NCBI GenBank assembly: GCA_964604795.1
Contig: CAZSBQ010000048.1
Coordinates: forward strand, 1 to 20,039
Direction of reading: 5' to 3'
DNA: 20,039 bases
From: an uncultured Victivallales bacterium
GTDB lineage: Bacteria > Verrucomicrobiota > Lentisphaeria > Oligosphaerales > CAZSBQ01
Positions within the stretch are counted from its first letter, which is position 1. Each line of letters opens with the position of its first letter. A program made the translations under genes and the position numbers. The notes beneath the pieces were generated by a model, which ran no database searches, had not been told where the DNA came from, and worked only from the letters and a program-made list of their open reading frames with translations. Positions 3,686 to 20,039 of the stretch are shown in pieces.

Positions 3686-3970
3686 CACAGTGTCACTGTC
3701 ATAGGGGTCTGTGTATGCTCAAACCCCTGATTTTTTGATAAAATCCCTGCTTTTTAGAGGTGAGAGGGGGTGGGTGTGACACTGTGACAGTATGGGTATA
3801 TATATATGTATATTCTATATATTTGAGGCTATATAGTCGTAAAAACAGTGTCACAGAAACCTCGTGACAGTGAGTGACACTGCACCTCTTTTTCAACAAT
3901 AGTGTCACGCAGTGTCACGGCGGACTCAAACAGCGAATCAGCCTCAAAACAAGAACAGTGTCATAGGGGC
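3686..3970. repeat. iteron-like array of CAGTGTCAC / GTGACAG motifs (about 9 copies, both orientations) flanking an AT-rich core at 3796-3835
   Basis: Copies include CACAGTGTCACTGTCATAGGGG (3686-3707), GTGACACTGTGACAG (3777-3791), AACAGTGTCACAG (3844-3856), GTGACAGTGAGTGACACTG (3865-3883), AGTGTCACGCAGTGTCACGG (3901-3920) and CAGTGTCATAGGGGC (3956-3970). The AT-rich tract is TATATATATGTATATTCTATATATTTGAGGCTATATAG. Confidence 0.6.
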
Positions 3971-4735
3971 GAATCCTGACTGCGCGACGGCATTTTGCCC
4001 TCCTGCTGGCGGAGCACAAGCAAAATCTCATGGCTGATCCCGAAGACCTGCCTTAGCTCGTTTCGGCCCTGATGCCGAATTCGGCATCAACTGCATAGCA
4101 CGGATTGGAAACCCTACCTCAAAAAAAATCGCGGAAAAATGATCCCCGACCACAGATCGCGAGCGAAGCGAGTGAGCTGTGGGACCGATAGGTCAAGGGG
4201 ATTCATTTTTTCGAATCCGGCCTAAACTCAAGCCGAATTTTGGATGCATTAGGGCGTATGGGCTGATCTTCAGGTATTTCGATCTTGTGTCAAATCATAT
4301 ATAGCCCTCTCCACTGCAGGGCCTGCAGTTGCTATGCTGCTCTTTGGCGAAGTGTGATGAGCAGCGCCTGGAGATGCCAGAAATAGGCTTTTTCAAACTG
4401 TGTGTAGTAGCGCAGCAATGAAGCACAGCGGGCCTTCTTATGCCTTCGCTCTCCCGTTTTCAGAGGTCAGAAAGGGTCTCGTCTGTACTGGTCTGCACAA
4501 GGGAACTGAAACCCAACCTCAGATCGATCCCCAGCACCGCAATCTCATCGACCCCGGAGTCTGTCCTGCAAATGCTCTCCGCCGCCTTTGTCAGGAGTCC
4601 ACAGAGCTTATCAAAGGGCAGGTGGGTGTTGCTCTCTGGATGTCGCCAGTAGTTCTTACTTCTCCCCTGATACACCAGAAGAAAAACGCCGCATCGGGAG
4701 CGGTTATCGCGCATGTATTGGCCGCGCAGCTGATT

Positions 4736-5595
4736 TTAAGCCGTTCGATGAGTTGACATGTTGACAATTTGTGAGCTATTTTTAATTCGATGAGCACAGG
4801 TGCGTCCACGCGCGCGGAATGGAGACGAATGTCGGGACGCTTTCCGTCGGCATAACTCTTCCTCCTGGGCCACGCTGTAGATGCTGCAACTGCGCTGCCT
4901 CAGCCAGTAGGCGAAATCATTGCGCAGTTGGACTTCTCGTTTGATGGCCTGCAATATGGATGCCCGGCTGTCCTCTGCTTCCTCGAGTTCGTGCTTCAAG
5001 TCGAGGAGTCGGCCGACGGTCAGATCGTAGAGTTCGGCGTGATTTCCGGGCTGCTTCACCCCCTTGTCGGCGAACTCGCGAACGGCGGCGAAAATGCCGC
5101 ATCGGTCAAGCGCTCCGTGAAGCTCCCGTCCAAGTCTCTTTATTGTCATCTCGAAGCGTTTGGGACCGACAAGGCGAGCCTCGTCAACCGAGTCGAGGAA
5201 GAAGAATGCTCGCGCCGAACCCCATTTTCGCCATTCCTCGAACTCCTCATGCGTTCCGGCCTCCTCGAACGCACTCTCGAAGCAGTCGCCGACAAACTCC
5301 AGGCGCACAAAGAAGGCTGCCTCACCCGAGGCCTTAAGTTTACAGGCGCAGTGCTTGAGTTCAGATGTCTTCCCCGACCCCGCTTCGCCCAGAATGACGA
5401 CACGGGGCAGTACCAGAAGATCGCCCCATCCCCTGGAGTCCAGTACGCCATGATGCCGAGAGTGTCGTAGTCATCGGATTGGTGCGGGTCTGGCGACAGC
5501 GGGATGAACTGCCGGTTCAAATGCAGGAAGTCAGTAGACATGGGGTAGCGATACGCTCTCGGTTTTTCCGGGCAGAAAGAGCCTTGCCAGTTCAA
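4736..5595 (-). pseudogene. P-loop NTPase (STAND/AAA-like), disrupted: N-terminal piece in one frame (5437..5541/5595), Walker A/B piece in another (4736..5470), followed by an in-frame TAA
   Basis: The minus frame that is open from 5470 encodes VVILGEAGSGKTSEL (Walker A) and FFFLDSVDEA (Walker B), but has no ATG/GTG/TTG before the GTG at 5308. The upstream ORF (ATG 5541, MSTDFLHLNRQF...AYWTPGDG) runs into it and is out of frame at the C/G-run 5425-5436. After the TAA at 4736-4738, the same frame reopens at 4714..4460. Confidence 0.55.
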
Positions 5596-6206: not shown

Positions 6207-7199
6207 ATGGAGAAGAATAATAACTTGAAGTCGAACACCGAAAAATTTGATCTGATGATGACGCCGATGATGCGGCTGCGGGCGAAATTGAAAGAGTTGC
6301 CCCCGCCGGGCTACGGCCAGGGATGCCATCCGGGGCTCCTGGGGTGCGCGAACCTGGCCAGACGCGCAGGACTGGACCGGACTTCCGCATTTTGCAGGCT
6401 CAAGAATGCGATCAAGCCCGGCCCACGCGAGGTTCCGGATACGGAGATAAAAGATGCCATCAATCTCGCATACGACGGCAATCAAGAGAGTAGACCTCGC
6501 CCGGCAGCGGTCCGGAGAGCCGAAGAGTCGGGAGTTCCGAGCTTCGATAGCGATGCCGAGCGAAATCGCATAATTCAGGCAGGTGCCGGATGGGATGAAG
6601 CCACTTGGATGGCTGCCTCCCCGACACCAATTCCCGAAGCCCCCGCCGAGCAGACGCAACTGGTGCTTCGCGAGCTGTTCAGCGTCAACGAGTTCGTTTT
6701 CGTGGGCGAGCGGTGGGGGACGTCGGACAGCGTCTTGAGAGTCGAACAGTGGGCTGGCATCCTGGCTGAATTTGCAGGAACCCTGAACCCGCCACACGTG
6801 ATCCCGAATCCGCTGACGGGAGACTGGGCTGCGAAGAGCTCAGGAGGTGGCAGTAAACGCTGCGACGAAGCCGTGGCCAAGTATCGAATTGCGGTCGCCG
6901 AATTCGACGGTCTCTCCCGAGAGGAGCAGTTGGCTTTTTGGGCGGGATTTGGTCGCCCGCTTGTGGCGCTGGTTGACTCCGGCGGAAAATCCGTTCACGC
7001 CTGGCTAAAAGTAGACTGCGCCGATGCCCAAGATTGGGGCGAGCAGGTGGGCAAAAAGCTTTACGGGGACCGATTAATCCCCCTTGGCGTCGATCCCGCA
7101 TGCCGGAATCCAAGCAGACTCTCCCGCCTACCGGGCATCACGCGAGACAATGGAAATATTCAGAACTTACTTTATCTGAAGAGTATGGAGAATCGATAA
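6207..7199 (+). CDS. primase-polymerase (archaeo-eukaryotic primase, PrimPol-like) replication protein
   Basis: AEP-like motifs: IAVAEFDG (acidic motif I), VDSGGKSVHAWLKV (motif II, sGxGxH), RLPGITRDNGN (motif III). Immediately followed by the DUF3987-like gene with overlapping TAAATG. Confidence 0.5.
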   Translation: MEKNNNLKSNTEKFDLMMTPMMRLRAKLKELPPPGYGQGCHPGLLGCANLARRAGLDRTSAFCRLKNAIKPGPREVPDTEIKDAINLAYDGNQESRPRPAAVRRAEESGVPSFDSDAERNRIIQAGAGWDEATWMAASPTPIPEAPAEQTQLVLRELFSVNEFVFVGERWGTSDSVLRVEQWAGILAEFAGTLNPPHVIPNPLTGDWAAKSSGGGSKRCDEAVAKYRIAVAEFDGLSREEQLAFWAGFGRPLVALVDSGGKSVHAWLKVDCADAQDWGEQVGKKLYGDRLIPLGVDPACRNPSRLSRLPGITRDNGNIQNLLYLKSMENR

Positions 7200-8495
7200 A
7201 TGCATAACCGAACATCTAGCCCAGATCCCGAGCGCGAATTGGAGCATATCATCGCAAATATGCCAGAGCGCAATCAGCCTATCCCAGATAGAATCCAAAG
7301 AATCATAGGCGACAGAGGGTTCTTACGGTCCTATCTTGACTTGCTCGGAGGAAGAAACGAAACTTCCTCGCTTTTTCACCTGGCCACCGCTCTAACCGTC
7401 CTCGGCGGCGGCCTGGCACGCAAAGTCTACGTCCGGCACGGCGAGCGTCGGGTTTACCCCAATTGTTTCACTTTAGTCGTAGGCAACAGCGGGATCTCGC
7501 GCAAATCCTCAGCGTTATCACCGGGGAAGCGGGTTTTTAGCAACTCCGGAACAGGTGATACAATGCCGGATAATTTCAGCGAAGAGGCGCTCGCTGAAAT
7601 TTTGAAGGAAGCTCCAGTCCTGGGAATCATCAGCGAGTTCAAAACCCTTGTAATGAATGCCGGAAAAAACTATGCGGGCGGCCTAATCTCGAGGCTCACC
7701 GACCTGTTCGACATGCCCGCGGAACTTTCTTTCGCCTTCAAAAAAAATGCGAAAAGGAAAGGAGAGGGCTGCAAAGTCGTCGTCCCGGATCCCACTCTGA
7801 GCCTAATCGCGGCGACCACTGAAGATTATTTCGCAGTCGACGACGCGGACGTTGCCGGTGGATTCGTGGGACGTTTTCTCGTGTTCGCGCACCAAGAGGA
7901 GACGCCCGTCATCCCGTGGCCGGCACCGATTCCGAAGGAAGCGTTTGTGCACCTGGGCGCAATGCTGCGCGAGCGTGCGGAAAACGGTTGCGGCGAGCTG
8001 GAACTGACCGCCGAGGCGAAAGATGCCTTCAGTGACATCTACCGGCGCTTCCGCAAAGAGGCCAGCGAGGCTCCCGATCGAAGTGCCGCGATGGACAGCT
8101 TCAGGTCCCGGGCTGGACTTTTCGTACTGAAGCTATCCCTAATTTTTGCAGTGAGCGAAAACCCGCACGCCAAGGTTATTGAAAAAACACACATTACGCG
8201 AGCAGAGCTGCTAGTCAAACAGTGCACTGAGGGACATGCCCGGTTGATCAGCCGCATATGCACCTCGAAATGGGAAAAAGACCGAAAAAAGGCTCAGGAT
8301 TTCATCGCCGCCCGCAGCGAAACCAGCATGCGAGACATTTATCGCCATCTCGGGGTTGATGTCCAAACCGCGGGTCGCATCGTCGACACGCTGGAGGCCA
8401 GCGGTTTGGTGCATTCTCGAATGGAGAAGGCCGCGAACGGCAAAGAAGTCGTTCGCATTGTTAATGGCCCCGATCCAGAAGAATCGGCAGCCTAA
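7200..8495 (+). CDS. DUF3987-like protein with degenerate P-loop (helicase-like partner of PrimPol in integrative-element replication modules)
   Basis: YPNCFTLVVGNSGISRKSSAL resembles the degenerate Walker-A region of DUF3987/primase-C-terminal proteins. The ATG at 7200 overlaps the PrimPol stop (TAA 7197-7199), indicating coupling, with GGAG 9 nt upstream. Confidence 0.4.
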   Translation: MHNRTSSPDPERELEHIIANMPERNQPIPDRIQRIIGDRGFLRSYLDLLGGRNETSSLFHLATALTVLGGGLARKVYVRHGERRVYPNCFTLVVGNSGISRKSSALSPGKRVFSNSGTGDTMPDNFSEEALAEILKEAPVLGIISEFKTLVMNAGKNYAGGLISRLTDLFDMPAELSFAFKKNAKRKGEGCKVVVPDPTLSLIAATTEDYFAVDDADVAGGFVGRFLVFAHQEETPVIPWPAPIPKEAFVHLGAMLRERAENGCGELELTAEAKDAFSDIYRRFRKEASEAPDRSAAMDSFRSRAGLFVLKLSLIFAVSENPHAKVIEKTHITRAELLVKQCTEGHARLISRICTSKWEKDRKKAQDFIAARSETSMRDIYRHLGVDVQTAGRIVDTLEASGLVHSRMEKAANGKEVVRIVNGPDPEESAA

Positions 8496-8505
8496 AATCA
8501 CACCC

Positions 8506-8533
8506 GGCGGGGAGGCCATCGTGCCTCTCCGCC
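8506..8533 (+). terminator. 11-bp stem hairpin GGCGGGGAGGC-CATCGT-GCCTCTCCGCC just after the 7200-8495 gene; possible terminator/RNA structure
   Basis: The inverted repeat has one G-U wobble. It is followed by TAAACGCGGAATTTCTATAAATTT, which is AT-rich but not a clean U-run. Confidence 0.3.
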
Positions 8534-8578: not shown

Positions 8579-9088
8579 ATGTCGTCACGCGAAGATACCG
8601 TTCGCAAACATGTTTCATCCGCATTGGACGAGAGCAGCCGCGCTAACTTTGAAGCGGCGCTCAAAAGTCATAGCCTGACTTTTTACCAGAAGGGCCGGAG
8701 TCCCGCCGTCAATTTGAAAACCAACTCTGGGGGGCAACGCTTCAGGCTCCAGCGCCTGGGCCTGCTCGACAGATGGAACGCGGCGCTGGCCGCCTGGGGA
8801 GAAGATGCCAATTATCCCAGTCGGGGCACCGTGAGGACCAGGGGAAAAGGCGTGGACGAAATCGCCGCGCTCTGGCACGAATTCAGCAACAACAGCTCCA
8901 AGCTGTCCCCGAACGAGCGCTTGTCCGTGCGAGATTTCCTGGAAGAACTGTCTTACGATGATGTCTGCAAGGCGTTGGAAATTACAGCTTCGAGACTTTC
9001 AGGAAAACCAGACGAAGACCGATTTAGGTACTTCTGCGGAATTTGCTGGAATAAGATAAAGGAGCTCAAAAGCAGTAGGGCGGACTGA
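8579..9088 (+). CDS. hypothetical protein (approx 170 aa)
   Basis: ORF 8558..9088. The ATG at 8579 has GAGG 9 nt upstream, while 8558 has no RBS. No recognisable motif. Confidence 0.45.
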   Translation: MSSREDTVRKHVSSALDESSRANFEAALKSHSLTFYQKGRSPAVNLKTNSGGQRFRLQRLGLLDRWNAALAAWGEDANYPSRGTVRTRGKGVDEIAALWHEFSNNSSKLSPNERLSVRDFLEELSYDDVCKALEITASRLSGKPDEDRFRYFCGICWNKIKELKSSRAD

Positions 9089-9641: not shown

Positions 9642-11571
9642 CTATTCCAGGACTGACGGCGCCAGACAGACGCGGAAGCCCAGGCTGTTGCCCGTGTTCT
9701 CCGGGCTGCTCCTGTTGCGGTAGGCCGACCGCACGATTCCGGACGAACCGACCCAGCAGCCGCCGCGACTGACGCGGTCCGAGGCCGCCTTAGTGTTCAC
9801 CGGGTTCGTCCCGGGCGACCGCCCGTAGAAATCGTCATCGTACCAATCATAGCACCACTCCCAGACGTTGCCCGACATGTCGTGCAAGCCGAGTTCGTTG
9901 GCTTTCAATTGCCCGACTTCGTGCGTTTCTCCCCCGCTGTTGTCTCGGTACCACGCCACCTCATCCGCGTTGTTCGAGCCGGAATACGTGTACCCCCGGC
10001 TCCTGTTACCGCCGCGCGCGGCGTACTCCCACTCCGCCTCCGTCGGCAGACGGTACACGTACCCGTCCGGCAGACGTCCGGCACGGCGCTCCCGCCCCGC
10101 CAACGCCTTGCAGAATTTGTCCGCATTGTTCCAGGATACGCCTTCCGCCGGAAAGCGGGGATGAGTGATACGTCTGACCTCCCGTCCGATGCCCAGAAAA
10201 CCGGACTTCACAACGTCCTCGTCTTGAAAATGACTTGGATTTCTGCCCGTCAGCTTCTCGTACTCTCCCTGCGTCACCGGATACTTACCCATCCAGAAGG
10301 GATGCGTTAGCGTCACCTCGTGGACCGGCTTTTCGTCTTTGTATGCGTCGGCCTGATCGCTGCCCATCTGGAAGGTCCCCGGTTCCACTCGGACGAACTC
10401 CATGCCCAGCTCGTTGCCGGCGGTCGGGTCGTCTGCAGGTGAAGCGGCATCGGATGCTGTTGGTGTGTCGGCTCGAATCGGTTCAGGTCGGGCCGGTTGC
10501 GGCTTATGCTGCACGGATGATGCTTCCGATGCAGTCGATGGTTCGCCCGGCAAACGTTCGCGCATGGCTGCGGCATCCGCAAAACGGCCGGAGGCATCCT
10601 CCTCCAACGCCGTAAGGATAAGCTCATCCCAGGCGAGATCGAGGCTTTTTACGTAGTACGATGGTGGCCGGGGACCGACCTGCTTGCCGGTGAGCAGCCG
10701 ATACATCATCAGGCCGACGCTGTAGACATCGCTTGCGGGCGTGGCGTCCTCGCCGCGCTTTTGCTCCGGGGACATGTACTCAAAGGTTCCCAGCATGGAC
10801 TTTGTGCTGGCTCCCGCACCCTCGGGAAGCTCAGTCTGCATCCCGCCGATGCTCATCGACATCTTCACGGACAGCTCGGCCTGACTGCGCACCCACTCCT
10901 CGCCGATCATGCGGACCAGTCCAAAGTCGGCGATCTTGAAGGTGGCGTAGCCGTCGCCGTCGGTGCAAATCAGGATGTTGGCGGGTTTTAGATCGCGGTG
11001 AATCACGCCATGTTGGTGCGCGTGAGCCAGGCCGTCCAATACCTGAGCGAACACCGCAGCCGCCTCATCTGAATCGAGCCGCCCACCCTGCGCCTCGGCA
11101 TACTCCCCCAACGTCCTGACCTCTGCCCTCTGATCTCCGCCCTCTGCCCTCCGACCTCCGACTTCTGCCCTCCGATCTCCGGCATCCAGCTCGTGGGGAC
11201 ACTCGCCCTCCAGGTTCAAGGACAAAGCCACTCGCCAGTTCCATTCGCAGCCAGTACCGCCCGTCGGTCTCGCCGAAGTCATCGACCTGAACGATATTGG
11301 GATGCTCGATATTCGCCATGGCGCGCGCCTCGCGCCGGAACCGCTCGAGCGCATCCGCCCGGTTTGCGAAGTCCGCAGGTAAAAGCTTGAGAGCGTACCT
11401 TCGAAGCAGGGTCGTATGCTCAACCTCATACACTTCCCCCATCCCGCCGCGCCCCAGCAGCCGAACGACTCGATACTGCCCAAGCACGTTACCGGGCTTC
11501 AAAGACGAACCTCCCGGGTCTTTGCCCCCAGGCGGCATCGTCTCATCGAAGTTGATGGTGTTGTCGTTCAT
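9642..11571 (-). CDS. Ser/Thr protein kinase fused to a C-terminal FGE-sulfatase (formylglycine-generating-enzyme-like) domain; frameshifted between kinase N-lobe and C-lobe
   Basis: N-lobe (ORF 11065..11637): [18 protein letters not shown] (Gly loop), YALKLL (beta3 Lys). C-lobe (ORF 9642..11483): [20 protein letters not shown]-sulfatase-like region: [16 protein letters not shown]...[16 protein letters not shown]...NVWEWC...RGGCW. The two frames swap between 11211 and 11238. ATG at 11571 (MNDNTINF); the GTG 11637 extension lies inside the upstream repeat. Confidence 0.8.
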
Positions 11572-11574
11572 GTC

Positions 11575-12195
11575 GTTCGCTTGTTTCTTGGGGCGCTGCC
11601 CCAAACCCCGCCAGGGGAAACGTGGTTCCCCCTGCACCCCCCCAAGGTAGTCAGGACCGGGGGCAATGGGCCGGGAACTTGAACGGTTTTGATAAACCGC
11701 TCAACTTCCCGACCCGGTTCCGCATTTTTTTTTTGGGCCTTCCAATCGTTATACCCTAAAATCGTCATACCTTCTCCGGCTCTTGTCTTCTCTCCGCGCC
11801 TCTGCGCCTCCGCGCGAGAATCATGCCTTTCCAATCGTCATACCATCTCTCTGCCTTTTGTGCTGGGACTGGGGGACCATGGGTGTGTGGGGTTGTGAGT
11901 ATGTGGGTGTCACTGGCAACTGGCAACTCGCGTTTCGCGCCTCACGTTTTATGAACAGGCAGGGATGCCTATTCTACTTTGCCCTTTGACTTTGCCCTAC
12001 CAATCGTCATACCTCTCTCTTTGCCTTTGCCCCATGATTCTGCCGCCAATGATTCTGCCAAATCTGCTCTTGCCTTACTTGCGTAAAACGTGTGTGGGTG
12101 GGTCTGTGGGTGTCAGGTTTCGTTTCACGCATCACGTTTTATGAACAGGCAGGGATGCCTATTCTACTTTGCCCTTGCCTTCCGCTTGTCATACT
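11575..12195 (+). repeat. modular intergenic repeat, copy A
   Basis: hp1 TTGGGGCGCTGCCCCAA 11588-11604; hp2 11611-11634; 41-bp palindrome CCGGGAACTTGAACGGTTTTGATAAACCGCTCAACTTCCCG 11671-11711, then T10 11725-11734; AATCGTyATACC at 11744, 11760, 11833, 12002; CGCG-rich unit 11790-11845; GT-rich 11881-11910; ACTGGCAACTGGCAACT 11912-11928; hairpin AACAGGCAGGGATGCCTATT 11954-11973 and again 12134-12153; ATGATTCTGCC x2 12034-12059. Confidence 0.8.
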
Positions 12196-13895
12196 TACCG
12201 CACGATGGTTTGGTTGTCGCTGGAGCGCTTGGCGGCTTCGGTGGCGGGTTCGACGGTGGTTTTTAGGTTGCGTTCCTGGCGGTCGCCGGTGTCCTTGTAG
12301 AGCGAGCGCATTTCTTCGAGCAGCTCGCGGTACTTGTCTTCTTCGCCCTGCTTCATGCGTGCGAGCGCTTCGGCGGCTGCGGGACTGTCGGCGGCCGCCG
12401 CGGCGAGGATTTGCTCGGGGGTTTTGCCGTCCTGCGATTTGAGTCGCATGGCGTCGAGGATGGATTTGCGCGCGTCGGGGTCCTGGATGTCGGCGAGCAT
12501 CTCCAGTTCGGACATGCCGGAGCGGCGCTTGGCATCCAATTCGGCCATCTCGGCCTTGTGCTCCTCCTTCTGCTTGCGCAGGCCCATGGCCCATTCGGTC
12601 TCCTCGCGTTCGCGCTGGTCGGCCCACTCCTTCTCCTTTTTCTCCTGCTCGAACTGGATATCGCGGACCTGGGTTGCGGTTTCCGTATCCTTTACCTGCT
12701 TGTCGCGCTCGTAGCCGTCGCGCTTGACGGATACGCCGAGGTCGTGCTCGAGTTTTTCGGATTCGACCTGGAAGGTATGGCGCAGGTCGTCGAGTTCGTC
12801 CCGCTTCTCCCAGGCGCGGTGCAGCTCGGTGCGTTCGCGGTCGCGCTTGTCCTCGGCGATGCCGTACTCGTGGGCGATGGCGGCCTGGTAGTCGGCCAGT
12901 TCCTGCTCCGAGTGGAACTGGTCCATTTGGTCCTTGGAAAGCAGCGAGCGCATCTGCTGATCGTACTCGATCTCGCGCCGCTTCTGCTCGACTTGGCCCA
13001 TCTTCTCGGCGAGGTCTTCGTACTCTTCGCCGGTGAATTCGGCGGAGGAGACGCGGACCAGCTCGATGCCCTGACGGACAAGCGCCTCGCGCAGGTAGCG
13101 GTCGAGGTCGTCCTGCAGGCGCAGGCGCCGCTCGGGATCTCGGACGAGGTCTTCGACGGTGCTCTTTACGCACATGGCGTCCACGGCGTGCCGGATATCC
13201 GATTCGAAGGGCGAGGTCATGTCTTGGTAGGATATCTGCTCGGCGTCCTTGAAGCGGTTTTCGAGGAAGGCGATGGCGCTCTTCTTGTCGTTGCCGAAGC
13301 GAACGATGACCTCGCCGTAGAATTCGATGGGCAGGCCCTCGGAGGTGCGCAGGCTCTCCAGGCGTACTGGGAGGATGACGTCGCCGGCGTCGACGAGCAC
13401 GACGGAGCGCGGCGGCGGGTTGCCGAAGCGGTTGATGGCGCGCGCCAGGCTGTCGGGGTTGTGCCGTCCCGCTTCCAGGATGCCGCGGAACTGTCCGCCG
13501 TCCATGAGCAAGGCGACGGTGCCGGCTTGGACGAGCAGGTCGTTTTTGAGCAGGCGCTTGATGTCGCCGATCTCAAAGCGCTGGGCGAAGACGCCGGGCT
13601 GCTTGCTCCAGACGCCGCCCGCAATGTCCGCGCGGCTCTCGGGATGCAGCGGCTGGTTGCAGTGGGGGCAGAAGTGGGAGTCGTTGCCGATCCATTTGCG
13701 GCAGGAGGGGCATTTCCACCAGCCGCCGGGGGCGGGACGGCCGCATTTGTTGCAGAATCGGGCAGCCTTGCGGACCTTGTTGTCGCAGACGGGCCAGTCA
13801 GGGTCCTGCCGCGCCTGCTCCAACGCTTTGCCGCTCAACGCGCGACCGCTGTTCGGATCGATCAAAGCCTGACATGTGTCACTGAAAATACCCAT
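12195..13895 (-). CDS. zinc-ribbon + SPFH/band-7 domain protein with long charged coiled-coil C-terminal region
   Basis: N-terminal CxxC...CxxC...CxxC (CNKCG...CPSCR...CPHCN). Central region VVLVDAGDVILPVRLESLRTSEGLPIEFYGEVIVRF...DIRHAVDAMCVKSTVEDLVRD...LREALVRQGIELVRV fits the SPFH fold pattern. E/K/R-rich C-terminus. ATG 13895 (MGIFSD) with GAGGTG RBS; the TTG 13964 extension (MGQRPKKQ...) lies in the repeat. Confidence 0.5.
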   Translation of the reverse strand: MGIFSDTCQALIDPNSGRALSGKALEQARQDPDWPVCDNKVRKAARFCNKCGRPAPGGWWKCPSCRKWIGNDSHFCPHCNQPLHPESRADIAGGVWSKQPGVFAQRFEIGDIKRLLKNDLLVQAGTVALLMDGGQFRGILEAGRHNPDSLARAINRFGNPPPRSVVLVDAGDVILPVRLESLRTSEGLPIEFYGEVIVRFGNDKKSAIAFLENRFKDAEQISYQDMTSPFESDIRHAVDAMCVKSTVEDLVRDPERRLRLQDDLDRYLREALVRQGIELVRVSSAEFTGEEYEDLAEKMGQVEQKRREIEYDQQMRSLLSKDQMDQFHSEQELADYQAAIAHEYGIAEDKRDRERTELHRAWEKRDELDDLRHTFQVESEKLEHDLGVSVKRDGYERDKQVKDTETATQVRDIQFEQEKKEKEWADQREREETEWAMGLRKQKEEHKAEMAELDAKRRSGMSELEMLADIQDPDARKSILDAMRLKSQDGKTPEQILAAAAADSPAAAEALARMKQGEEDKYRELLEEMRSLYKDTGDRQERNLKTTVEPATEAAKRSSDNQTIVR

Positions 13896-13924
13896 CGCTG
13901 CACCTCGTCTTTCGCTTTGCTTGG

Positions 13925-14430
13925 TGGTTTGTTTGCTTGCTTGTTTCTTGGGGCGCTGCCCCAACCCCCGCCAGGGGAAATGATTTCCCCTGGACCCCTC
14001 GGGCTGTTTTACCGCGAATCTCGTAAATCCGCGCGGCAGGGGACAGAGGGCATGGGTCGGGAACGTGAGCGGTTTTTGGCAAACCGTTCAAGTTCCCGCC
14101 CCGGCTCCAGTTTTTGATTTTCCTGTCGCTACTTCCGGACCATGGGGGGTGTGGGTTTGTGTGTGTGGGTGTGTGGGTGTGTGGGGTTGTGTTACTGATT
14201 ACTGGTCACTGGTCACTCCCGCTTTACGCTTGACGAACAGGCAGGGATGCCTGTTTTACGTTATCCTCTGCCTTTGCCCCATGATTTTGCTGTCAATGAT
14301 TTTGCCAACCTGCCCTTGCCCTTCTAATCGTCATACCCCAATAATCGTCATACCTTCTCTCTGCCTTTGCCTTCTCCCTCACGCCTCACGCCTCACGCCT
14401 CACTCATCACTCATCACCTGTCTTGCAGAG
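13925..14430 (+). repeat. modular intergenic repeat, copy B
   Basis: hp1 13948-13964; hp2 CCAGGGGAAATGATTTCCCCTGG 13971-13993 (11-bp perfect stem); palindrome CGGGAACGTGAGCGGTTTTTGGCAAACCGTTCAAGTTCCCG 14058-14098 plus T-runs 14111-14122; GT microsatellite 14147-14192; ACTGATTACTGGTCACTGGTCACT 14193-14216; terminator-like hairpin 14236-14258; ATGATTTTGC x2 14281-14304; AATCGTCATACC x2 14326-14354; CCTCACG x4 then CACTCAT x2 14369-14418. Confidence 0.8.
14236..14258 (+). terminator. terminator-like hairpin AACAGGCA-GGGA-TGCCTGTT + TTTT (module of the repeat family; perfect copy)
   Basis: 8-bp perfect stem, GGGA loop, U4 tract, in the + orientation only (antisense to all neighbouring genes). 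Equivalent copies lie at 20016-20037 (perfect) and 11954-11973, 12134-12153, 18209-18228 (one stem mismatch, TGCCTATT). Confidence 0.35.
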
Positions 14431-14502
14431 CAGTATACTCGATATTCCCGGGATTTTCAACTCCTCTATTTATCTCTGTTTACGGGAGCGGTGCTGCGTT
14501 GG

Positions 14503-15363
14503 TCAGGTTTCTCGCTTGGCCAGGGTTTCGCAGGCGCAGTAGTTGTAGGTACCCAGCACGGCGACGCTGACGGCCAGGGCTGCGGGCAGCCACGGCCCGG
14601 TGACGGTGTAGAGTCCGAGCAGGGCCAGCGCGGCCATTCCGATGGCCGTGTACCCCAGCAGCAGGAGAGCCCCGGCTGCATTGGTGCGTTGGCGACGCGC
14701 ATGGAAACTCAGGGGAGCGGTGATCCAGGGCAGAGCGGCAATCCCGGCGATGCCCAGCAGCCAGACCAGAATGCGACTGCCGCCGCCGTGGTTCTCGTCC
14801 TCCCGCGCCGCGGCGACGGTGGAACTGCCGGTCACGGCTTCGTTGAGCAGCCGCCGCTTCTGCCCCGGCGCGAAGGCGCGCAGTTGAACGGTGGCAAGCG
14901 CGTCGGCTTCGGTGGATGTGATGTCCCGCACGCTGCCCGCAATCACCACATCCAGGTCGACGCGACGCCCGGCGTTGAGTATCTGCTCCAGGGTGGTTGC
15001 GCCTTCGAGCTGGCTGGTGACGTCCTTCAGGAAGCGCTTGATCACCGACCGGTCGTCCACCTCGAAGCGGGGATGCCCGGCGACGGCCCGGCGCAGAGTC
15101 GTCGTCACCTCGTCGGTGGGATCGGAGAGCAGATGAGCCACGCCCACGCGCAGGGGCGTTTCATCCTCGGCAGGCGCCAGTTTGGCCGCCATGCGCTCGA
15201 CAAACTCCCGGCACAGCTGCTCGACCGCATGCCGCTCCTGCTCGGTCAGCTCCGGCGGACGCGGACGGCTGAAGACAAACACCTGCCAGCCGAGAAACGC
15301 CAGAACGACCAGGGCCAGTCCCTTCAGAGAAACCATAAACCACAAAAACCGCATTACGCTCAT
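14503..15363 (-). CDS. hypothetical membrane protein (N-terminal TM helix, 3-4 C-terminal TM helices)
   Basis: ATG 15363. Hydrophobic N-terminus FLWFMVSLKGLALVVLAFLGWQVFVF and C-terminus ILVWLLGIAGIAALPWI...ALLLLGYTAIGMAALALLGLYTV...ALAVSVAVLGTY. No family recognised. Confidence 0.5.
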   Translation of the reverse strand: MSVMRFLWFMVSLKGLALVVLAFLGWQVFVFSRPRPPELTEQERHAVEQLCREFVERMAAKLAPAEDETPLRVGVAHLLSDPTDEVTTTLRRAVAGHPRFEVDDRSVIKRFLKDVTSQLEGATTLEQILNAGRRVDLDVVIAGSVRDITSTEADALATVQLRAFAPGQKRRLLNEAVTGSSTVAAAREDENHGGGSRILVWLLGIAGIAALPWITAPLSFHARRQRTNAAGALLLLGYTAIGMAALALLGLYTVTGPWLPAALAVSVAVLGTYNYCACETLAKRET

Positions 15364-15384
15364 GAGAACACCTTTGATTGAAAG

Positions 15385-15445
15385 TACGACGAGTAGGAGG
15401 TATGACGATTGATTGGTATGACGATTAGAGGGGGTGACAATTGTT
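15385..15445 (-). repeat. minimal copy of the AATCGTCATACC direct-repeat module (two units 16-17 bp apart), here inverted relative to the other copies
   Basis: GGTATGACGATT at 15399-15410 and 15415-15426, then GGTGACAATTG 15433-15443 (compare CCAATTGTCAACC at 18292). It lies 35-60 nt upstream of the 15363 ATG on the gene-sense strand. Confidence 0.6.
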
Positions 15446-15448
15446 TGT

Positions 15449-16269
15449 TTAGGTTGTTGATTGGTTGCATTGCAGGGTCATGACTGTGATGGTTGGACCG
15501 GCAAAATTGATCCAGTCGAGTGCAGTAAAGGCAGATGAATCGAGGCGGCGCTGAAGATGGCGGCGCACCGTGTCGAGGTGCCTGGACTCCGTATGGCCCG
15601 TGACCTCGAATGCGGCCTGCTTATCCAAGCGGTGAAAGCGGCTGTATCCGGCGAATGCGCCGTCGTAGAACACAGGGGATTGCACCAGGACATTCTGCTC
15701 GCCGCCGAGCAAATGCACCAATGCATCGCGATAAAGATCGATGGAGAGGAATGCCCCCCAATCCGAAAGAACACTGCGCAGGAAATCCACGAGCAAGCGA
15801 CTTCTGTCTCCGCGCGGCTGCCAGTTGCCGACATCAAGGTCGAATCGATATCTGTCCTCGGTCGCACATTGAGTAGTAACGTATTCGCTTTCCACCGAGG
15901 ACGTCCCGAGATTGACCAATTTTCCGGTTCCCAGCCCCAGCATCAGGAGGTAGTTCAGAAGCTGTCCCCGATGCCTGTCGTCCAAACCGCGCATTGCCTT
16001 CAATTCATACACCACTGCATTCTCGGCAAGCGCATCGATAGAGTAGCACTTTTCGAAGGAACCATGCCGACATAGGATCGGGACTTCCGTGTGGACACTG
16101 AGGCCATCCTGCGAGCATGCATTCCGCAGAGCATTCTGATATACCCGCTCGTCCTGCATTGACCCGAGCGTGCGGTGGACGGCAAAAGCATGTCCCATGA
16201 CTCTGTAGTCCAGTTCATGGTATTCGTCCCGCGACACACGCCGCACCTCGCAATCAAACTCAATCGGCA
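15449..16269 (-). CDS. hypothetical protein with PD-(D/E)xK nuclease-like motif
   Basis: ATG 16269 (MPIEFD) with GGAG 8 nt upstream. The ORF-track start at 16294 is a TTG inside the repeat. Motif SIDALAENAVVYELKAM fits D-x(n)-E-x-K of restriction-endonuclease-fold proteins. The assignment is tentative. Confidence 0.35.
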
Positions 16270-16284
16270 TATCAATCTCCAACC

Positions 16285-16536
16285 TGCCTTCCAATCGTCA
16301 CATCCTACTCTCGGCCTTTTGGACCGTGGGACTGGGGGACTGATGGACCGGGGTGCCCACCCTCCCTGCCTGCCTTGTCATTCTGCCAAACCGCATTTGC
16401 CCTAGCAATCGTCACACCCAAAAAATCGTCATACCCGCTCTCTGCCCTTGCCCTTGCCCTTGCCTTTGCCTTCCAATCGTCAACCCCATAATCGTCAACC
16501 CAACGCCTTTCTGCCCTTGCCCTTTGATTGTCATCC
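16285..16536 (+). repeat. modular intergenic repeat, copy E (AATCGTCAyACC-rich variant)
   Basis: CAATCGTCACATCC 16291; GGGACTGGGGGAC 16328-16340 (as in copies A and C); AATCGTCACACC 16405 and AATCGTCATACC 16422; (TGCCCTTGCC)n 16442-16470; AATCGTCAACC x2 16473-16499; TTGATTGTCATCCC 16523-16536. Confidence 0.7.
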
Positions 16537-17667
16537 CTACTCCTCCTCCGTTTTTTTGCGTCTGTCCGGCTCGGGCTCATCGAAGTCGTCCAGATCGCTT
16601 GTCGCCGGGGCGATCGTTGCCGGCGCGCGCTCGGCCGTATCCTCCTCCGCCTCCGGTTCCTCATCAAACCCGGCAAGCAGCTCGTCCAGGTCCTCTTCCC
16701 CCTCCTCCTCCCGCCGGCGTCCGGCGCGGTCCAGGTCCCTCATCGCATCCATCACCGCATCGGCTTCGCCCGCCTTTTCATCCAGGTCCTCCACCAGACT
16801 GTCCACCTGGTCCTCATCGATTCCGCGCAGATCATAGGCGAGCATTTCCAGAAAGCGTCCGCGCACCCGCGAGACCACGCGCTCATTTTCCAGCAGCACG
16901 CCCAGCTCGCGCTCCGCATCCTTGTATCCCGACAGCAGATTCTTCAGCTCCATGTCGAGCACCCGCCGACGCGCGCTGCCCGCCTTTTCCCGCTCCTTCT
17001 TCTTGGCGACAATATCCTTGTGCAGCGACTCAAGCCGCCCCGACACGCCCTCGCGACGCTCCCTGTTCTGCGATATCTGGCCGTCGAAGGTTGCCAGCAT
17101 CGTCTCCGGAGACGTATCCTTGCGCAGCTTGCCGAGCAGGCCCGCCGCCTGTCCGCCCGCCTTGCGGAGCATATCCAGCGTGTTCCTCATCGCGCTCTTC
17201 GCCACCGGTTTCGGGGCGTTCCTGGCCAGTTCGCGGTCTTTCTCGGTGCTCATTGCCGGTTCCTCCGACTCCGTCGCGGCCGCTGCGGACTCCGCAGACC
17301 CCGACGAAGGTTCGCTGTTGGATTGTTCCTCGTTTCGATTCCACATCCGCTTCCACCAGGGACGCGTTGAATTCTCACTCTCCGTCCCCGATGCCGCCGC
17401 GGACTCCGCAGTCTGCCCGGAGTGCTCCGGGGTCGCTTCCCGGTTCGACTCGGTCTCGGACGCCGACTGACGCGAAACCGCCGCCTGCCCGCCACCGCTC
17501 TCGTCCGGTTTCCACCCGTGCGCGGGACAACGCCGGTTGCCGCGGCGCCAATGCAGGTCGCAGAATGCCGCGCCGCAGCCCTCGGCATCGCACGTTCCCG
17601 CCACAGCATACCGATTCGGCAACGCCCGCCCGCAAATGCAGCACTGTGTCTTGCTCTCGGTCATCAT
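16537..17667 (-). CDS. hypothetical Cys/His-rich (zinc-finger-like) protein with low-complexity S/E-rich middle and highly acidic C-terminus
   Basis: Double ATG at 17662-17667 with GGGTGA upstream. N-terminus CCICG...C..C...C..H....C..H. C-terminus EEEGEEDLDELLAGFDEEPEAEED. No family recognised. Confidence 0.5.
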   Translation of the reverse strand: MMTESKTQCCICGRALPNRYAVAGTCDAEGCGAAFCDLHWRRGNRRCPAHGWKPDESGGGQAAVSRQSASETESNREATPEHSGQTAESAAASGTESENSTRPWWKRMWNRNEEQSNSEPSSGSAESAAAATESEEPAMSTEKDRELARNAPKPVAKSAMRNTLDMLRKAGGQAAGLLGKLRKDTSPETMLATFDGQISQNRERREGVSGRLESLHKDIVAKKKEREKAGSARRRVLDMELKNLLSGYKDAERELGVLLENERVVSRVRGRFLEMLAYDLRGIDEDQVDSLVEDLDEKAGEADAVMDAMRDLDRAGRRREEEGEEDLDELLAGFDEEPEAEEDTAERAPATIAPATSDLDDFDEPEPDRRKKTEEE

Positions 17668-17789
17668 TCACCCAAGGTCATGGTTGCGTCCGTCAATGCT
17701 CGAGTCGTCCGTGCCGGCGTAAACGTATCGCGGGTTATCTCTTTTTACAAACGCACAAACACAAACACAAACGAAAACCCGAATCGAAC

Positions 17790-18403
17790 CGAGTCGAGTC
17801 TTGGGGCGCTGCCCCAAACCCCGCCAGGGGAAATGATTTCCCCTGGACCCCTCAGGCAGTTTTACCGCGAATCTGGCAAATCCACGCGAATGGGGGCAAG
17901 GCACGGACAGGGGCACGGGCAAGGGCAGGGGCCGGGAACTTGAGCGGTTTTTGGCAAACCGATCAAGTTCCCGACCCAGTTCCGCATTTTGGTTCTCCAA
18001 TCGTTATACCCTAAAATCGTCATACCTTCTCCTGCTCTTGTCTTCTCTCCGCGCCTCTGCGCCTCCGCGCGAGAATCATGCCTTTCCAATCGTCATACCA
18101 TCTCTCTGCCTTTTGTGCTGGGACTGGGGGACCGTGGGTGTGTGGGGTTGTGAGTATGTGGGTGTCACTGGTAACTGGTAACTCGCGTTTCGCGCCTCAC
18201 GTTTTATGAACAGGCAGGGATGCCTATTCTACTCTGCCTTTGCCTTATGATTCTGCCATCGATGATTCTGTCAAAACTGCCTTTGCCTTTCCAATTGTCA
18301 ACCCCATAATCGTCAACCCAATGCCTTTTCCTTCTCTCCGCGCCTCTGCGTCTCTGCGCGAGAATCATGCCTTTCCAATCGTCCACCGGGGGCGTTGCCC
18401 CGG
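17790..18403 (+). repeat. modular intergenic repeat, copy C (near-identical to copy A over ~330 bp)
   Basis: CAAACA tract 17745-17775; hp1 17801-17817; hp2 CCAGGGGAAATGATTTCCCCTGG 17824-17846; palindrome 17935-17975; AATCGTTATACC / AATCGTCATACC 18003-18030 and 18088; CGCG-rich unit 18037-18095 and again 18333-18390; GT-rich 18125-18160; ACTGGTAACTGGTAACT; hairpin 18209-18228; ATGATTCTG x2 18246-18275; AATTGTCAACC / AATCGTCAACC 18292-18320; hairpin CCGGGGC-GTT-GCCCCGG 18387-18403. Confidence 0.8.
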
Positions 18404-18494
18404 CCTGGTATGCGGCGCGCCGTTGGCGCAGATGCGGTGGACGCGTTTGTTCCAGCGGATCGTTGTTTGCGGCTCTGCGCAAAGAACGATCCAT

Positions 18495-18565
18495 GGGGGG
18501 TGCAGGGGGAACCACGTTTCCCCTGCCGAGGGTCTGGGGCGAGCAGCCCCTGGGTCTTGGCGTTC
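18495..18565 (-). repeat. inverted partial copy of the hp2/hp1 module of the repeat family
   Basis: GGGGGGTGCAGGGGGAACCACGTTTCCCCTG is the reverse complement of copy A 11611-11640. It is followed by GGGGCGAGCAGCCCCTGG, an hp1-like GGGGC...GCCCC hairpin. It abuts the 3' end of the AAA+/DUF4143 gene. Confidence 0.55.
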
Positions 18566-18601
18566 AAATGTCAACCCAACTCCCCGCAGGCGCCGAGGCT
18601 C

Positions 18602-19864
18602 TCAGCGCAGCAGCCAGTGGGCGGGGACATGCCAGATTCGGTCGTTGATCTTCTCGATAGTCCCGCCCGCGGTCACAAGCAGTCCGATACCGTCGGCATC
18701 CTGCTCGACGAACTTCTTCAGGTGCCGCGTATCGGCGGGATGGTACGTGTTCGACGCCTTGCACTCGCAGTACGCCGTAGTGTCGGGATTCGCCAGGGGG
18801 AAGACCGCGTCGACCTCCACCCCGGTCGAGGTGCGGATGAAGAAAAGGTCCTCGCGCAGGCTGGACAGATATAACTGCTTGCGAATATCGGTCAGCACCG
18901 TGTTTTCGAAAAGCTCCCCGGCATCCTGCCGGTAGTTGTTCAGCAGACAGCGCGCGAGCCCCGTGTCCGAGAAATACCACTTCGGGCTCTTCATCACCCG
19001 CTTGCCCAGGTTGCGGAAAAAGGGAGTCAGTCGCCACGCGATGAACAACTGCCGGTAGTAGTGGACGAAGCGACGCACCGTGTCCGCAGTCACCCCGCAG
19101 TCCCGGGCCAGCTCGCTCACATTCAGAAGCGAGCCCAGGCGAAGGGCAAACAGGGACTCGAAGCGCTCGAAAACATCCGCCGACTTCAGATTCACCAACT
19201 CGCGCAGGTCGGTTTCCAGGTACGTCTGCCGATAACTGTTCAGCCAGTTCCGACGGTCCTGGCCGTCGCGACGGGTGAGGAACTCCGGATAGCCGCCGTA
19301 CAGATTGAAATCCCGGAACCGGTCCAGCAGCTCCGCGGACTCCTGCACGGGGAGGTAGAACTCCGCAAGAATCCGCTCGGCCGCGCCGACCGATTCGGCC
19401 TCCAGCAGCGTGCTTAGCAGACCGGGGCCGTCGAGACCGCACAGCTCACGAAACGACAGCGGATCGAGCCGATAGAGCGCCACCCGCCCGGCCAGCGACT
19501 CCTTCACCTGCCGATGCAGCAGCAGGTGATTGGAGCCCAAAAGCAGAAACCGCCCCTTCACATTCGGGCGCTCGTCCACATCCAACTGGACCCGCTCCAC
19601 CAGCTCGGGCAGGCGCTGCACCTCGTCGAGAATGATCAACCGCTCCGCGTAGTGGGCGAACTCCCGTCGCGCGCCGTCCCCCTGCAATGCGGCGCGCACA
19701 CTGGGATCCTTGAGATTGTAGTACTGCACCGGCCGGTCGGTCTTCAGCAACTGGCGGACCAGCGTCGTCTTGCCCGTTTGACGCGCGCCCATGACCGCAA
19801 TCACCCGCTCGACATCAAGCGCGCGGGTAATATGCGGCGTCAATTGTCGCGCAAGAAAGTTCAT
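18602..19864 (-). CDS. AAA+ ATPase with C-terminal DUF4143 domain (AAA_14/DUF4143 family ATP-binding protein)
   Basis: ATG 19864 with GGTGAG RBS. Walker A VMGARQTGKTTLV; Walker B LIILDEVQ. The C-terminal half is typical of DUF4143 proteins (LRLGSLLNVSELARDCGV...YFSDTGL). Confidence 0.75.
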   Translation of the reverse strand: MNFLARQLTPHITRALDVERVIAVMGARQTGKTTLVRQLLKTDRPVQYYNLKDPSVRAALQGDGARREFAHYAERLIILDEVQRLPELVERVQLDVDERPNVKGRFLLLGSNHLLLHRQVKESLAGRVALYRLDPLSFRELCGLDGPGLLSTLLEAESVGAAERILAEFYLPVQESAELLDRFRDFNLYGGYPEFLTRRDGQDRRNWLNSYRQTYLETDLRELVNLKSADVFERFESLFALRLGSLLNVSELARDCGVTADTVRRFVHYYRQLFIAWRLTPFFRNLGKRVMKSPKWYFSDTGLARCLLNNYRQDAGELFENTVLTDIRKQLYLSSLREDLFFIRTSTGVEVDAVFPLANPDTTAYCECKASNTYHPADTRHLKKFVEQDADGIGLLVTAGGTIEKINDRIWHVPAHWLLR

Positions 19865-19974
19865 AGCTCACCAAATGCTGCATCAATGGGCGGAATCGTC
19901 AATTTACAGTGTATATCGCCATATGCCAGCGCCAGTTCACGGTGGAGAGTGTTTGGTGGTTCAATTGTCTGAGC

Positions 19975-20039
19975 GGTCTTGTTCACGCCTCACGTTTCAC
20001 GCTTCAAGTTTTATGAACAGGCAGGGATGCCTGTTTTAC
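19975..20039 (+). repeat. partial copy of the repeat family (hairpin-terminator module) running off the window end
   Basis: CACGCCTCACGTTTCACGCTTCAAGTTTTATGAACAGGCAGGGATGCCTGTTTTAC. The perfect AACAGGCA/TGCCTGTT hairpin at 20016-20035 plus TTTT. It sits upstream (gene-sense) of the 19864 ATG. Confidence 0.7.

Follow-up and report, generated by a model that had tools for sequence, protein, structure and literature searches.

This study concerns a 20,039-nt stretch of DNA from an uncultured Victivallales bacterium (hereafter the window, an entire contig of a metagenome-assembled genome, MAG), and in particular six genes in its right half and the repeat-rich spacers that separate them. According to the map of open reading frames (ORFs) all six genes are on the minus strand, and the ORFs together with the Pfam domain calls bear out the co-oriented array proposed in a first-pass annotation of this DNA. 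From left to right the array comprises a serine/threonine kinase gene (9642..11571; Pkinase and FGE-sulfatase, STK-FGE below); a gene for a zinc-ribbon SPFH protein (12195..13895; Band_7 and zinc ribbons, 566 amino acids (aa) counted from MGIFSD); a gene for a predicted membrane protein (14503..15363), which has no Pfam match and is related by tblastn to a 221-aa protein at a relative's locus, L028; a gene for a long-form GxxExxY nuclease of 273 aa (15449..16270; PDDEXK_3); a gene for a Zn-finger protein with an acidic coiled-coil tail (16537..17667; weak zf-CRD match, and related by tblastn to a 303-aa protein of L028); and a gene for an AAA_14-DUF4143 ATPase (18602..19864), for which an exact-protein look-up found no identical sequence on record. 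Pfam recognizes only one AAA protein, where two different P-loop/AAA ATPases had been expected, and the kinase gene is not intact: its Pfam domains fall on two ORFs in different frames. The suggestion of a defence-like island also found little support, as PADLOC places only the AAA_14-DUF4143 protein (candidate single-gene system PDC-S01, 1.3e-90), the hits of the kinase being to the generic kinase domain and the remaining four proteins giving no hit.

The spacers are 85-930 nt long and differ in module content. Reading them on the gene strand and with fuzzy patterns, we mapped a set of short modules, and the sharing of repeat modules among the spacers is real: with at most one mismatch, AATCGTCATACC has 13 matches in the window against 0.05 expected, a number that none of 100 shuffles got to. 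Many direct-repeat families are present, including a 255-nt pair at 96% identity. Three large spacers on the minus strand, IG1 (11572..12194), IG2 (13896..14502) and IG5 (17668..18601), contain a composite of about 0.45 kb. On the gene strand its order is the GGCAGAATCAT pair, a GTAG hairpin, heptamers, a CA-rich run, GGTCCCCCAGTCCCA, GGTATGACGATT, the GCGGAG module, a GGTATGACGATT pair, a long hairpin, a spacer, the hairpins hp2 and hp1, and then the gene. Alignment of the three spacers shows them to be colinear from the GGCAGAATCAT pair to hp1 and to diverge past 'CCCCAAGA', and the indels between the three composites have the size of whole modules. IG1 carries the full composite (two hairpins of the GTAG type, a GGCAGAATCAT pair, four AATCGTCATACC motifs, a GCGGAG module, a long hairpin and hp2'/hp1), and IG2 has the composite without the M1-GCGGAG-M1 block. 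IG5 is the longest mosaic, with the full composite plus further GCGGAG, GGGTTGACGATT and GCAAC-hairpin modules, and its distal boundary is an inverted copy of hp1/hp2 (~18500-18560) just past the stop codon of the AAA gene. Upstream of the AAA gene lie 175 nt to the contig edge (IG6, 19865..20039, minus strand), where a GTAG-type hairpin (20015-20039) and heptamers are accompanied by a single TGACGATT core, with no pair.

The modules recur at defined positions, all on the minus strand unless noted. The GGCAGAATCAT tandem pair is found at 12034..12059, 14281-14308 and 18247-18274, in each case solo and in gene orientation; the GCGGAG 8-mer module TTCTCGCGCGGAGGCGCAGAGGCGCGGAGAGAAG at 11787..11820, 18042-18075 and ~18335-18370; the hp2 + hp1 pair at 13947..13993, 17800-17846 and, as a variant, 11587-11650, besides the inverted copy already mentioned; and the long hairpin (~17-18 bp, z -5 to -8.6) at 14054..14102, ~11680-11730 and 17929-17977. 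The distance from the end of hp1 to the kinase ATG (11571) is 16 nt, and from the end of the composite it is 52 nt to the SPFH ATG (13895) and 133 nt to the ATG of the Zn-finger protein (17667). Ahead of the PDDEXK_3 start, 21 nt away, is a degenerate AATCGTCATACC-type copy, and the proper pair is 137 nt away; the membrane-protein start is 36 nt past a AATCGTCATACC pair in the opposite orientation. The modules are equally near preceding stop codons and following start codons, and degenerate GGTATGACGATT copies stand immediately 3' of three stop codons.

The hairpin GTAGAAYAGGCATCCCTGCCTGTTC has a stem of 8-9 bp and a 4-nt loop (-12.8 kcal/mol, z -4.7) and occurs five times, always intergenic and within 8.1 kb (11953..11977, 12143-12167, 14235-14259, 18208-18232 and 20015-20039, minus strand). 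By the definition of Di Nocera et al. (PMC3733652) it is a GTAG-tagged repetitive extragenic palindrome (REP), namely a palindrome of 20-40 nt with a 6-13-bp stem, a short loop and an unpaired GTAG or a degenerate form of it at one end; the tag is GTAG in three window copies and GTAA in two. Like the GTAG REPs, REP doublets (REPINs) and REP-associated tyrosine transposases (RAYTs) described previously (PMC3733652; PMC3116915), the window hairpin, GTAG-AACAGGCA-TCCC-TGCCTGTT, shows the tag, an 8-bp stem and a 4-nt loop, is intergenic and clustered, and belongs to a class known in distant phyla, including the Planctomycetes-Verrucomicrobia-Chlamydiae (PVC) group and Cyanobacteria. The exact 25-mer is found at 24 loci in species-representative genomes, with one to three loci per genome, in Cyanobacteria (Calothrix), Verrucomicrobiota, Acidobacteriota, Chloroflexota, Desulfobacteraceae and Leptospiraceae. 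At 17 of the 24 loci it lies outside every ORF of at least 110 aa, it occurs in both orientations, and the tag reads GTAG/CTAC at 17 and GTAA/TTAC at 7. None of the other window modules was seen at these 24 loci. The 25-mer (L001-L024; at least six phyla) often adjoins variants with other stems (GACGGGCATCTTGCCCGTC, GGACAGGCAGGAATGCCTGTCC).

We also considered whether AATCGTCATACC is a CGTC-tagged REP, in which a CGTC tag is followed by a stem of 8-9 bp that begins with AT, by a loop of 4-5 nt and by a CCA tail (PMC3733652), since AATCGTCATACC likewise holds CGTC followed by AT. In one metagenome contig (L025, 3750-3800) the 15 nt of AATCGTCATACC form the left arm of a textbook CGTC REP, CGTC-ATACCCGC-GAAA-GCGGGTAT-CCA, and this left arm, AATCGTCATACCCGC, is tandemly duplicated with a 16-nt period; both the 12-mer and the period are common to the window pairs. 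The assignment was rejected, as the window copies have no complementary right arm, form no palindrome and behave as direct-repeat pairs. This unrelated contig is the only one among the metagenome contigs with the AATCGTCATACC pair; viral contigs contain neither that pair nor the hp2/hp1 pattern. Half-sites may be hidden in hp2 itself: CCAGGGGAAATCATTTCCCCTGG (13971-13993 and 17824-17846) consists of two GGGGAAATCATT half-sites placed head to head, each identical at 9 of 12 positions to the GGCAGAATCATT end described below, and hp2 could on this resemblance be a collapsed inverted pair of the GGCAGAATCATT class. No Rfam family matches the spacers at E<=1 except for one chance-level small RNA hit (21 bits against a gathering score of 100); elsewhere in the window Rfam reports what may be the 3' end of a tmRNA where the contig begins, together with weak hits that fall outside the array. 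Translations of the repeats have no match in the protein database at E<=10. A sigma-54 reading of TGGCAGAATCATTGGC was dropped by eye, the -12 GC not being conserved; intrinsic terminators on the gene strand were dropped because the hairpins have no T-tails and the terminator count does not exceed that of shuffles (9 against 10.4); and RNA-level selection on the hairpins was dropped because both strands fold about equally and the differences between copies are non-compensatory.

One repeat array is found inside coding sequence. A 70-nt run of ten imperfect heptamers (11111..11180, minus strand; Tandem Repeats Finder periods 7/14/21) shifts the frame and so separates the two kinase ORFs (11065-11637 and 9642-11483). 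Removal of exactly 70 nt restores a single ORF of 619 aa, whereas removal of 63, 66, 69, 71 or 77 nt does not, and the kinases of L028, which are 36-47% identical to that of the window, are themselves 619 aa long. Therefore, the process that forms the repeats also hits coding DNA. L028 (1-7300) has a complete diversity-generating retroelement (DGR), composed of an HRDC protein, a reverse transcriptase (RT), a template repeat and three variable regions, directly upstream of an HTH_17-SPFH gene pair. The template (146 nt, 2610-2755) follows the RT gene; the variable regions (845-990, 4712-4857 and 6729-6874) are the 3' ends of STK-FGE genes, and every difference from the template is at a template adenine. 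The C-terminus of the window kinase (FGE-sulfatase, 3.9e-53) aligns with these variable regions including the ...LGFRV end; the window kinase is a homologue of the DGR target kinases of L028. The window contains no DGR template (the best non-self match is 34/60), and there is no RT on the contig.

The SPFH protein has 328 homologues in MAGs labelled Kiritimatiellae, Lentisphaerae and "Planctomycetota", and by sequence the zinc-ribbon SPFH proteins form a conserved family in PVC MAGs (those labelled Kiritimatiellae/Lentisphaerae). In L028 and L029 (SPFH identity 61%) the gene belongs to a tight operon with gaps of 10-40 nt, which in L028 encodes, in order, HRDC, reverse transcriptase, two STK-FGE kinases, HTH_17, SPFH, proteins of 524 aa and 207 aa, AAA, proteins of 303 aa and 274 aa, an LpoB-like protein, the 221-aa protein, bPH_2 and a kinase. 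The window Zn-finger/acidic protein is 55-61% identical to the 303-aa protein of L028 and 39% identical to the product of a gene divergent from the HTH_17-SPFH pair in L032 (tblastn), and the membrane protein is distantly related to the 221-aa protein (27-33% identity, E ~4e-8 to 4e-9, tblastn). Thus, relatives carry the genes for SPFH, the Zn-finger/acidic protein, the membrane protein and the STK-FGE kinase as a linked set, in reshuffled order; this neighborhood of SPFH, coiled-coil and membrane proteins and a DGR-diversified kinase, conserved in PVC bacteria, may merit study as a signalling module. The spacers of the window hold no remnants of the missing cluster genes (HTH_17, 524-aa, 207-aa, AAA, LpoB-like and bPH_2). 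In relatives an HTH_17 gene with a C-terminal Cys-rich zinc ribbon stands ahead of SPFH (L028 7236-7571; L032 1149-1475) and is absent from the window, and a similar Cys pattern forms the N-terminus of the window Zn-finger/acidic protein (17518-17634; tblastn E 0.011).

The window modules are absent from L028/L029, L030, L032 and L034 (SPFH identity 61-65%, the last three 63-65%), with the sole exception of a GCGGAG-class inverted pair in L032, and in L032 and L034 an ordinary TTGACA-N17-TATATT promoter precedes the HTH_17-SPFH pair. In L034, copies of a palindromic hairpin (TTTTCCGCGCAATTTCGCGCC...) stand on both sides of the SPFH gene, at ~1075-1105 and downstream of 2795. Of the relatives found, L031 (SPFH identity 84%) is the closest; its neighbor genes are different, and GGTATGACGATTGG, heptamers and GGCAAAGGCAG occur there behind the stop codons of two genes, SPFH and one of the TumE family. 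In L031 another hairpin module, equivalent to window 18381-18440, replaces hp1/hp2 upstream of SPFH, and the final ~35 nt ahead of the start codon are conserved. These comparisons identify the mosaics as lineage-specific additions to a pre-existing gene cluster, and the module repeat types occur elsewhere independently of the array genes. The first-pass annotation had offered two explanations of the repeats, a shared leader for common regulation and gene-by-gene acquisition of cassettes. The former fails as a dedicated leader because SPFH orthologues at 61-65% identity lack the modules, in tight operons or behind ordinary promoters, and because L031 has different modules at the site; for SPFH, the outcome that the first-pass annotation had itself named as a refutation, orthologous loci without the repeats and with ordinary promoters, does exist. 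The latter does not hold for the array, because four of the six genes are linked in relatives and were not acquired independently. It survives for the PD-(D/E)xK gene only, which is enclosed by inverted AATCGTCATACC arrays and whose homologues are likewise enclosed.

The PD-(D/E)xK gene is the only one of the six that constitutes a repeat-bounded unit (15399-16503). Its product has two tandem PD-(D/E)xK-like domains, with D79 and E89-x-K91 present as judged by fold and motif. The right terminal repeat (15399..15443, plus strand) consists of three tandem GGTATGACGATT-type copies with a period of 16, inverted relative to all other copies, and the left arrays (16291..16503, minus strand) consist of GGATGTGACGATT (16291-16305), a GGGTATGACGATT/GGGTGTGACGATT pair (16405-16437) and a GGGTTGACGATT pair (16475-16503). 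The two sides form an inverted repeat of 18 nt with 89% complementarity (15399-15416 / 16418-16435). Inverted tandem-motif repeats surround the GxxExxY gene at seven of eight independent loci (the window, L036, L037, L038, L049, L055 and L056) and are not clear at L057; the eight loci are a small and non-random sample. At L037 (45% identity to the window protein) two copies of GGGGATGACGATT lie upstream and four inverted copies downstream. At L036 (49%), from another sample, GGTATGATGATT lies upstream and three inverted copies of GGGTTGACTATT downstream, and the same REP, heptamer and CA-rich mosaic precedes the GxxExxY homologue. L038 (38%) has a GRCAGAATCAT pair upstream and an inverted pair at the stop codon, which correspond to the GGCAGAATCAT module of the window, and L049 (39%) has GGTAAAAARAT pairs. 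The GGCAGAATCAT-type pair stands 17-45 nt ahead of the start codon in GxxExxY units. The L038 unit is wedged between a 183-aa FtsK-operon gene and an amidohydrolase gene, and the L049 unit between an FAD oxidoreductase gene and a sialidase gene.

Short-form GxxExxY genes on plasmid records show a similar arrangement. In Bacteroides finegoldii the order is radA, TTCACCACAGAGGACGCAGAGGACACGGAG, the ORF, the inverted copy and a gene for an FAD-dependent protein (30 nt, 90%), and in Sphingomonas it is fabD, TTCACGCGAAGGCGCGAGGACGCGA, the ORF, the inverted copy and fabG (25 nt, 92%), while a flanking repeat is unclear in a Prevotella record. The tandem repeats of 8 nt around the short-form genes belong to the same class as the GCGGAG module of the window. 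The short-form genes of L055 and L056 are co-oriented with their neighbors. The one next to radA lies 1 nt past the radA stop codon, with 5 nt left to the following ATG; in Sphingomonas the annotated end of the ORF takes in the downstream repeat arm. Scored by one scheme, the inverted repeats of five GxxExxY genes reach 22, 14, 26, 22.5 and 10.5, compared with 7.0 on average and at most 16 for 38 other genes, the highest score being that of the SPFH gene of L034; for L037, L038 and L049 none of 500 shuffles attains the observed score. A profile search puts the GxxExxY/PDDEXK_3 family at 12,732 clusters (50% identity) at E<=1e-3; the long form accounts for 509 of them at E<=1e-30. No long-form member was found on plasmids at E<=1e-8, and a search of viral contigs found no further relatives. 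Most GxxExxY contigs are short, but so is the whole collection, and short contigs were not counted as a sign of flanking repeats. In the survey that lists the GxxExxY family, its function is given as "Unknown" (PMC3424549), and nothing in the literature searched ties this nuclease to repeats. The association is an interesting lead, and if it holds broadly it would assign a role to a family that is very large and whose only annotation is "GxxExxY protein".

ORF-less copies with shared ends were found for the GGCAGAATCAT class only. A 13.6-kb IMG/VR viral contig with phage structural genes (L048) carries three complete copies, each a pair, a 28-50-nt core and an inverted pair, as well as one solo pair. 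The four elements (3437-3541, 3789-3814, 7968-8071 and 8852-8933) are intergenic, and their inverted ends read GGCAGAATCATT-N3-4-RGCAGAATCATT. The GGCAGAATCAT motif is thus the terminal repeat both of the L038 unit and of these copies, which resemble MITEs (miniature transposable elements with inverted repeats). As with MITEs and autonomous transposons with terminal inverted repeats, the inverted ends are shared between ORF units (~0.45-1.0 kb) and ORF-less copies (~80-105 nt), and several copies occur in one viral contig. Unlike such transposons, they have no recognized transposase (DDE, HUH or serine) but only the PD-(D/E)xK nuclease, each end of a GxxExxY unit is a tandem motif pair, and there is no clear target-site duplication. 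The proposed logic resembles that of REP and RAYT, in that a nuclease gene is flanked by inverted copies of a repeat that is also dispersed without the gene. It differs in that the window has no RAYT (HUH Y1) gene, the flanked gene encodes a PD-(D/E)xK protein, and its repeats are tandem motifs of 8-16 nt rather than palindromic hairpins.

On balance we think that the following account, taken as a whole, is probably right, although it leaves considerable room for doubt. Four genes (SPFH, Zn-finger/acidic protein, membrane protein and STK-FGE kinase) would be pieces of a cluster that is conserved but reshuffled in PVC relatives. In a narrow lineage the spacers would have been filled by the GTAG REP hairpin, AATCGTCATACC pairs, GGCAGAATCAT pairs, GCGGAG 8-mers, hp1/hp2, the long hairpin, the GCAAC hairpin and 7-8-nt tandem repeats. 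These repeats would have become nested into the ~0.45-kb composite, which may then have spread among the spacers, through recombination or by being copied as a whole, because the order is colinear and a 255-nt block is 96% identical; the same process would have put the 70 nt of heptamers into the kinase gene and broken its frame. The mosaics are most likely selfish or structural repeats, and any effects on transcription, through the promoter-like GGCAGAATCAT pair or RNA hairpins, would be secondary. The two-domain nuclease may bind the tandem motif pairs and mobilize or home its unit, and ORF-less and solo copies may be non-autonomous derivatives of nuclease units, as REPs are of RAYTs. We put forward only tentatively, and think it somewhat doubtful, the full extension of this account, namely that a widespread and so far undescribed superfamily of mini mobile or homing elements uses GxxExxY/PDDEXK_3 proteins as its nucleases, with co-varying 8-16-nt motifs, insertion into operons, MITE-like copies, solo ends and a two-domain, pseudo-dimeric form that reads both motif copies at each end. 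If true, it would provide a PD-(D/E)xK-based counterpart to REP/RAYT and an origin for several ubiquitous intergenic repeat types in many phyla, including the copies in viral genomes.

Several observations weigh against this account. The flanking repeat of the window unit is weak within 110 nt (score 9, reached by 41 of 500 shuffles) and depends on arrays 137-230 nt upstream. At the loci examined we found no clear target-site duplication, no second identical GxxExxY unit and no empty site, although no search aimed at empty sites was made; the flanks of the complete L048 copies are GTT/GTT, TTT/TTA and GAG/GAA, and nothing evident as a target duplication flanks the L038 unit. Two units, P0170 (23 contigs) and P0183 (8 contigs), occupy one fixed locus each across many samples; neither these single contexts nor the flanks demonstrate that units with an ORF move. 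The account assigns no origin to the hp1/hp2, long-hairpin and CA-rich modules, and it draws the genome-wide spread of the modules from relatives alone. Each of the three full composites, like almost every oriented module, points in the gene direction and ends just before a start, as a leader would. The inverted repeats of GxxExxY units could act at the RNA level, as a processing stem, instead of at the DNA level. In 23S rRNA, intervening sequences carry four-helix-bundle (PF05635) ORFs flanked by inverted repeats that are cut by RNase III. By analogy, GxxExxY units are small, selfish-looking ORFs in inverted repeats, within transcribed units and in host-gene orientation; they differ in encoding another protein family and in lying between protein-coding genes.

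The best-surviving alternative, which we nevertheless regard as unlikely, is that the composite is a promoter plus a long structured 5' untranslated region (5'-UTR), perhaps of mobile origin like the promoter-carrying Correia elements, that co-regulates operon fragments through a factor binding the pairs or through RNA hairpins. Co-orientation, colinear order and the ending of the composite 16-133 nt ahead of three starts are consistent with it. So is the GGCAGAATCAT pair that stands at the upstream edge in each of the three composites and scores as a sigma-70-like site (TTGRCA-N16-AATCAT), as are the eight promoter-like sites (2.4 +/- 1.5 expected) and the promoter position of the same pair in GxxExxY units. 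In addition, the REP variant AAUAGGCA/UGCCUGUU preserves its pairing through a G-U wobble on the gene strand only. However, orthologous genes in relatives work without the composite, L031 at 84% identity has other modules at the site, modules are also inverted and inside coding sequence, the differences between long-hairpin copies break pairs with no compensation, and no Rfam family is matched. Moreover, the AATCAT '-10' is weak, and the best sigma-70-like site of the region (14460-14432, minus strand; TTGAAA-N17-TATACT, 10/12 match) is located just past the stop codon of the membrane gene, upstream of the entire IG2 mosaic; if this site is used, the SPFH 5'-UTR would be ~530 nt long and made of repeats. 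Because the GGCAGAATCAT pairs score sigma-70-like in three composites, a regulatory side-effect of the mosaics is possible.

We consider it improbable that the array is in part an artefact, with a chimeric gene order that arose when assembly of the MAG contig bridged repeats. For the same organism, run-level Logan assemblies do end within repeats (L026 covers 14336-16495 and L027 14336-16058), L035 holds SPFH only, and the 255-nt repeat at 96% identity is longer than short reads; because the Logan contigs break inside repeats, only the MAG assembly supports the gene order over the three large spacers. On the other side, L026 independently shows the adjacency of the membrane and PDDEXK_3 genes across IG3, and the repeats at the ends of Logan contigs, some with the identical membrane-protein gene, and in relatives indicate that the modules are real whatever the order. 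An integron-like or repeat-mediated capture of each gene separately with its own repeat is highly improbable: the PDDEXK_3 gene does resemble a repeat-bounded insert, gene order varies among relatives and a mosaic lies at every junction here, but four genes are linked in relatives without repeats, module content differs between spacers, no IntI is present, no attC-like site lies at 3' ends or recurs after each gene, and the sole integrase belongs to a separate tRNA-adjacent island.

Whatever their origin, repeat-rich spacers of this kind are easily mistaken for leaders or cassette boundaries and break metagenome assemblies, and knowing their composition prevents both errors. They resemble the bacterial interspersed mosaic elements (BIMEs) of Escherichia coli, BOX of pneumococcus and Correia elements of Neisseria, all modular intergenic mosaics of a few short modules in variable combinations, some of which influence transcription or RNA processing. 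The modules here are unrelated to those, and the window mosaics, at 0.24-0.93 kb, far exceed them in length and also contain tandem repeats of 7-8 nt. Cyanobacterial heptamer repeats of the short tandemly repeated repetitive (STRR) type, together with small dispersed repeats, have reportedly been described from intergenic regions by Elhai et al. in 2008. The window shares with them heptamer arrays and very small nested intergenic repeats, as well as the exact REP 25-mer in Calothrix, and differs in phylum and in having one array inside coding sequence.

The left 9.6 kb of the window is an integrative island, because the first letters of the contig belong to the 3' end of a gene for either a tRNA (Ser-like, with a long variable arm) or a tmRNA (...GGGTTCGAATCCCTGCCTCTCCGCCA), followed by a tyrosine integrase (138-1436), a DUF3987 protein (7200-8495) and ORFs of unknown function. 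It contains no repeat modules despite long non-coding stretches. A 12-nt repeat of the tRNA end, TGCCTCTCCGCC, occurs at 43-54 and again at 8522-8533, where it may mark the right end of the island.

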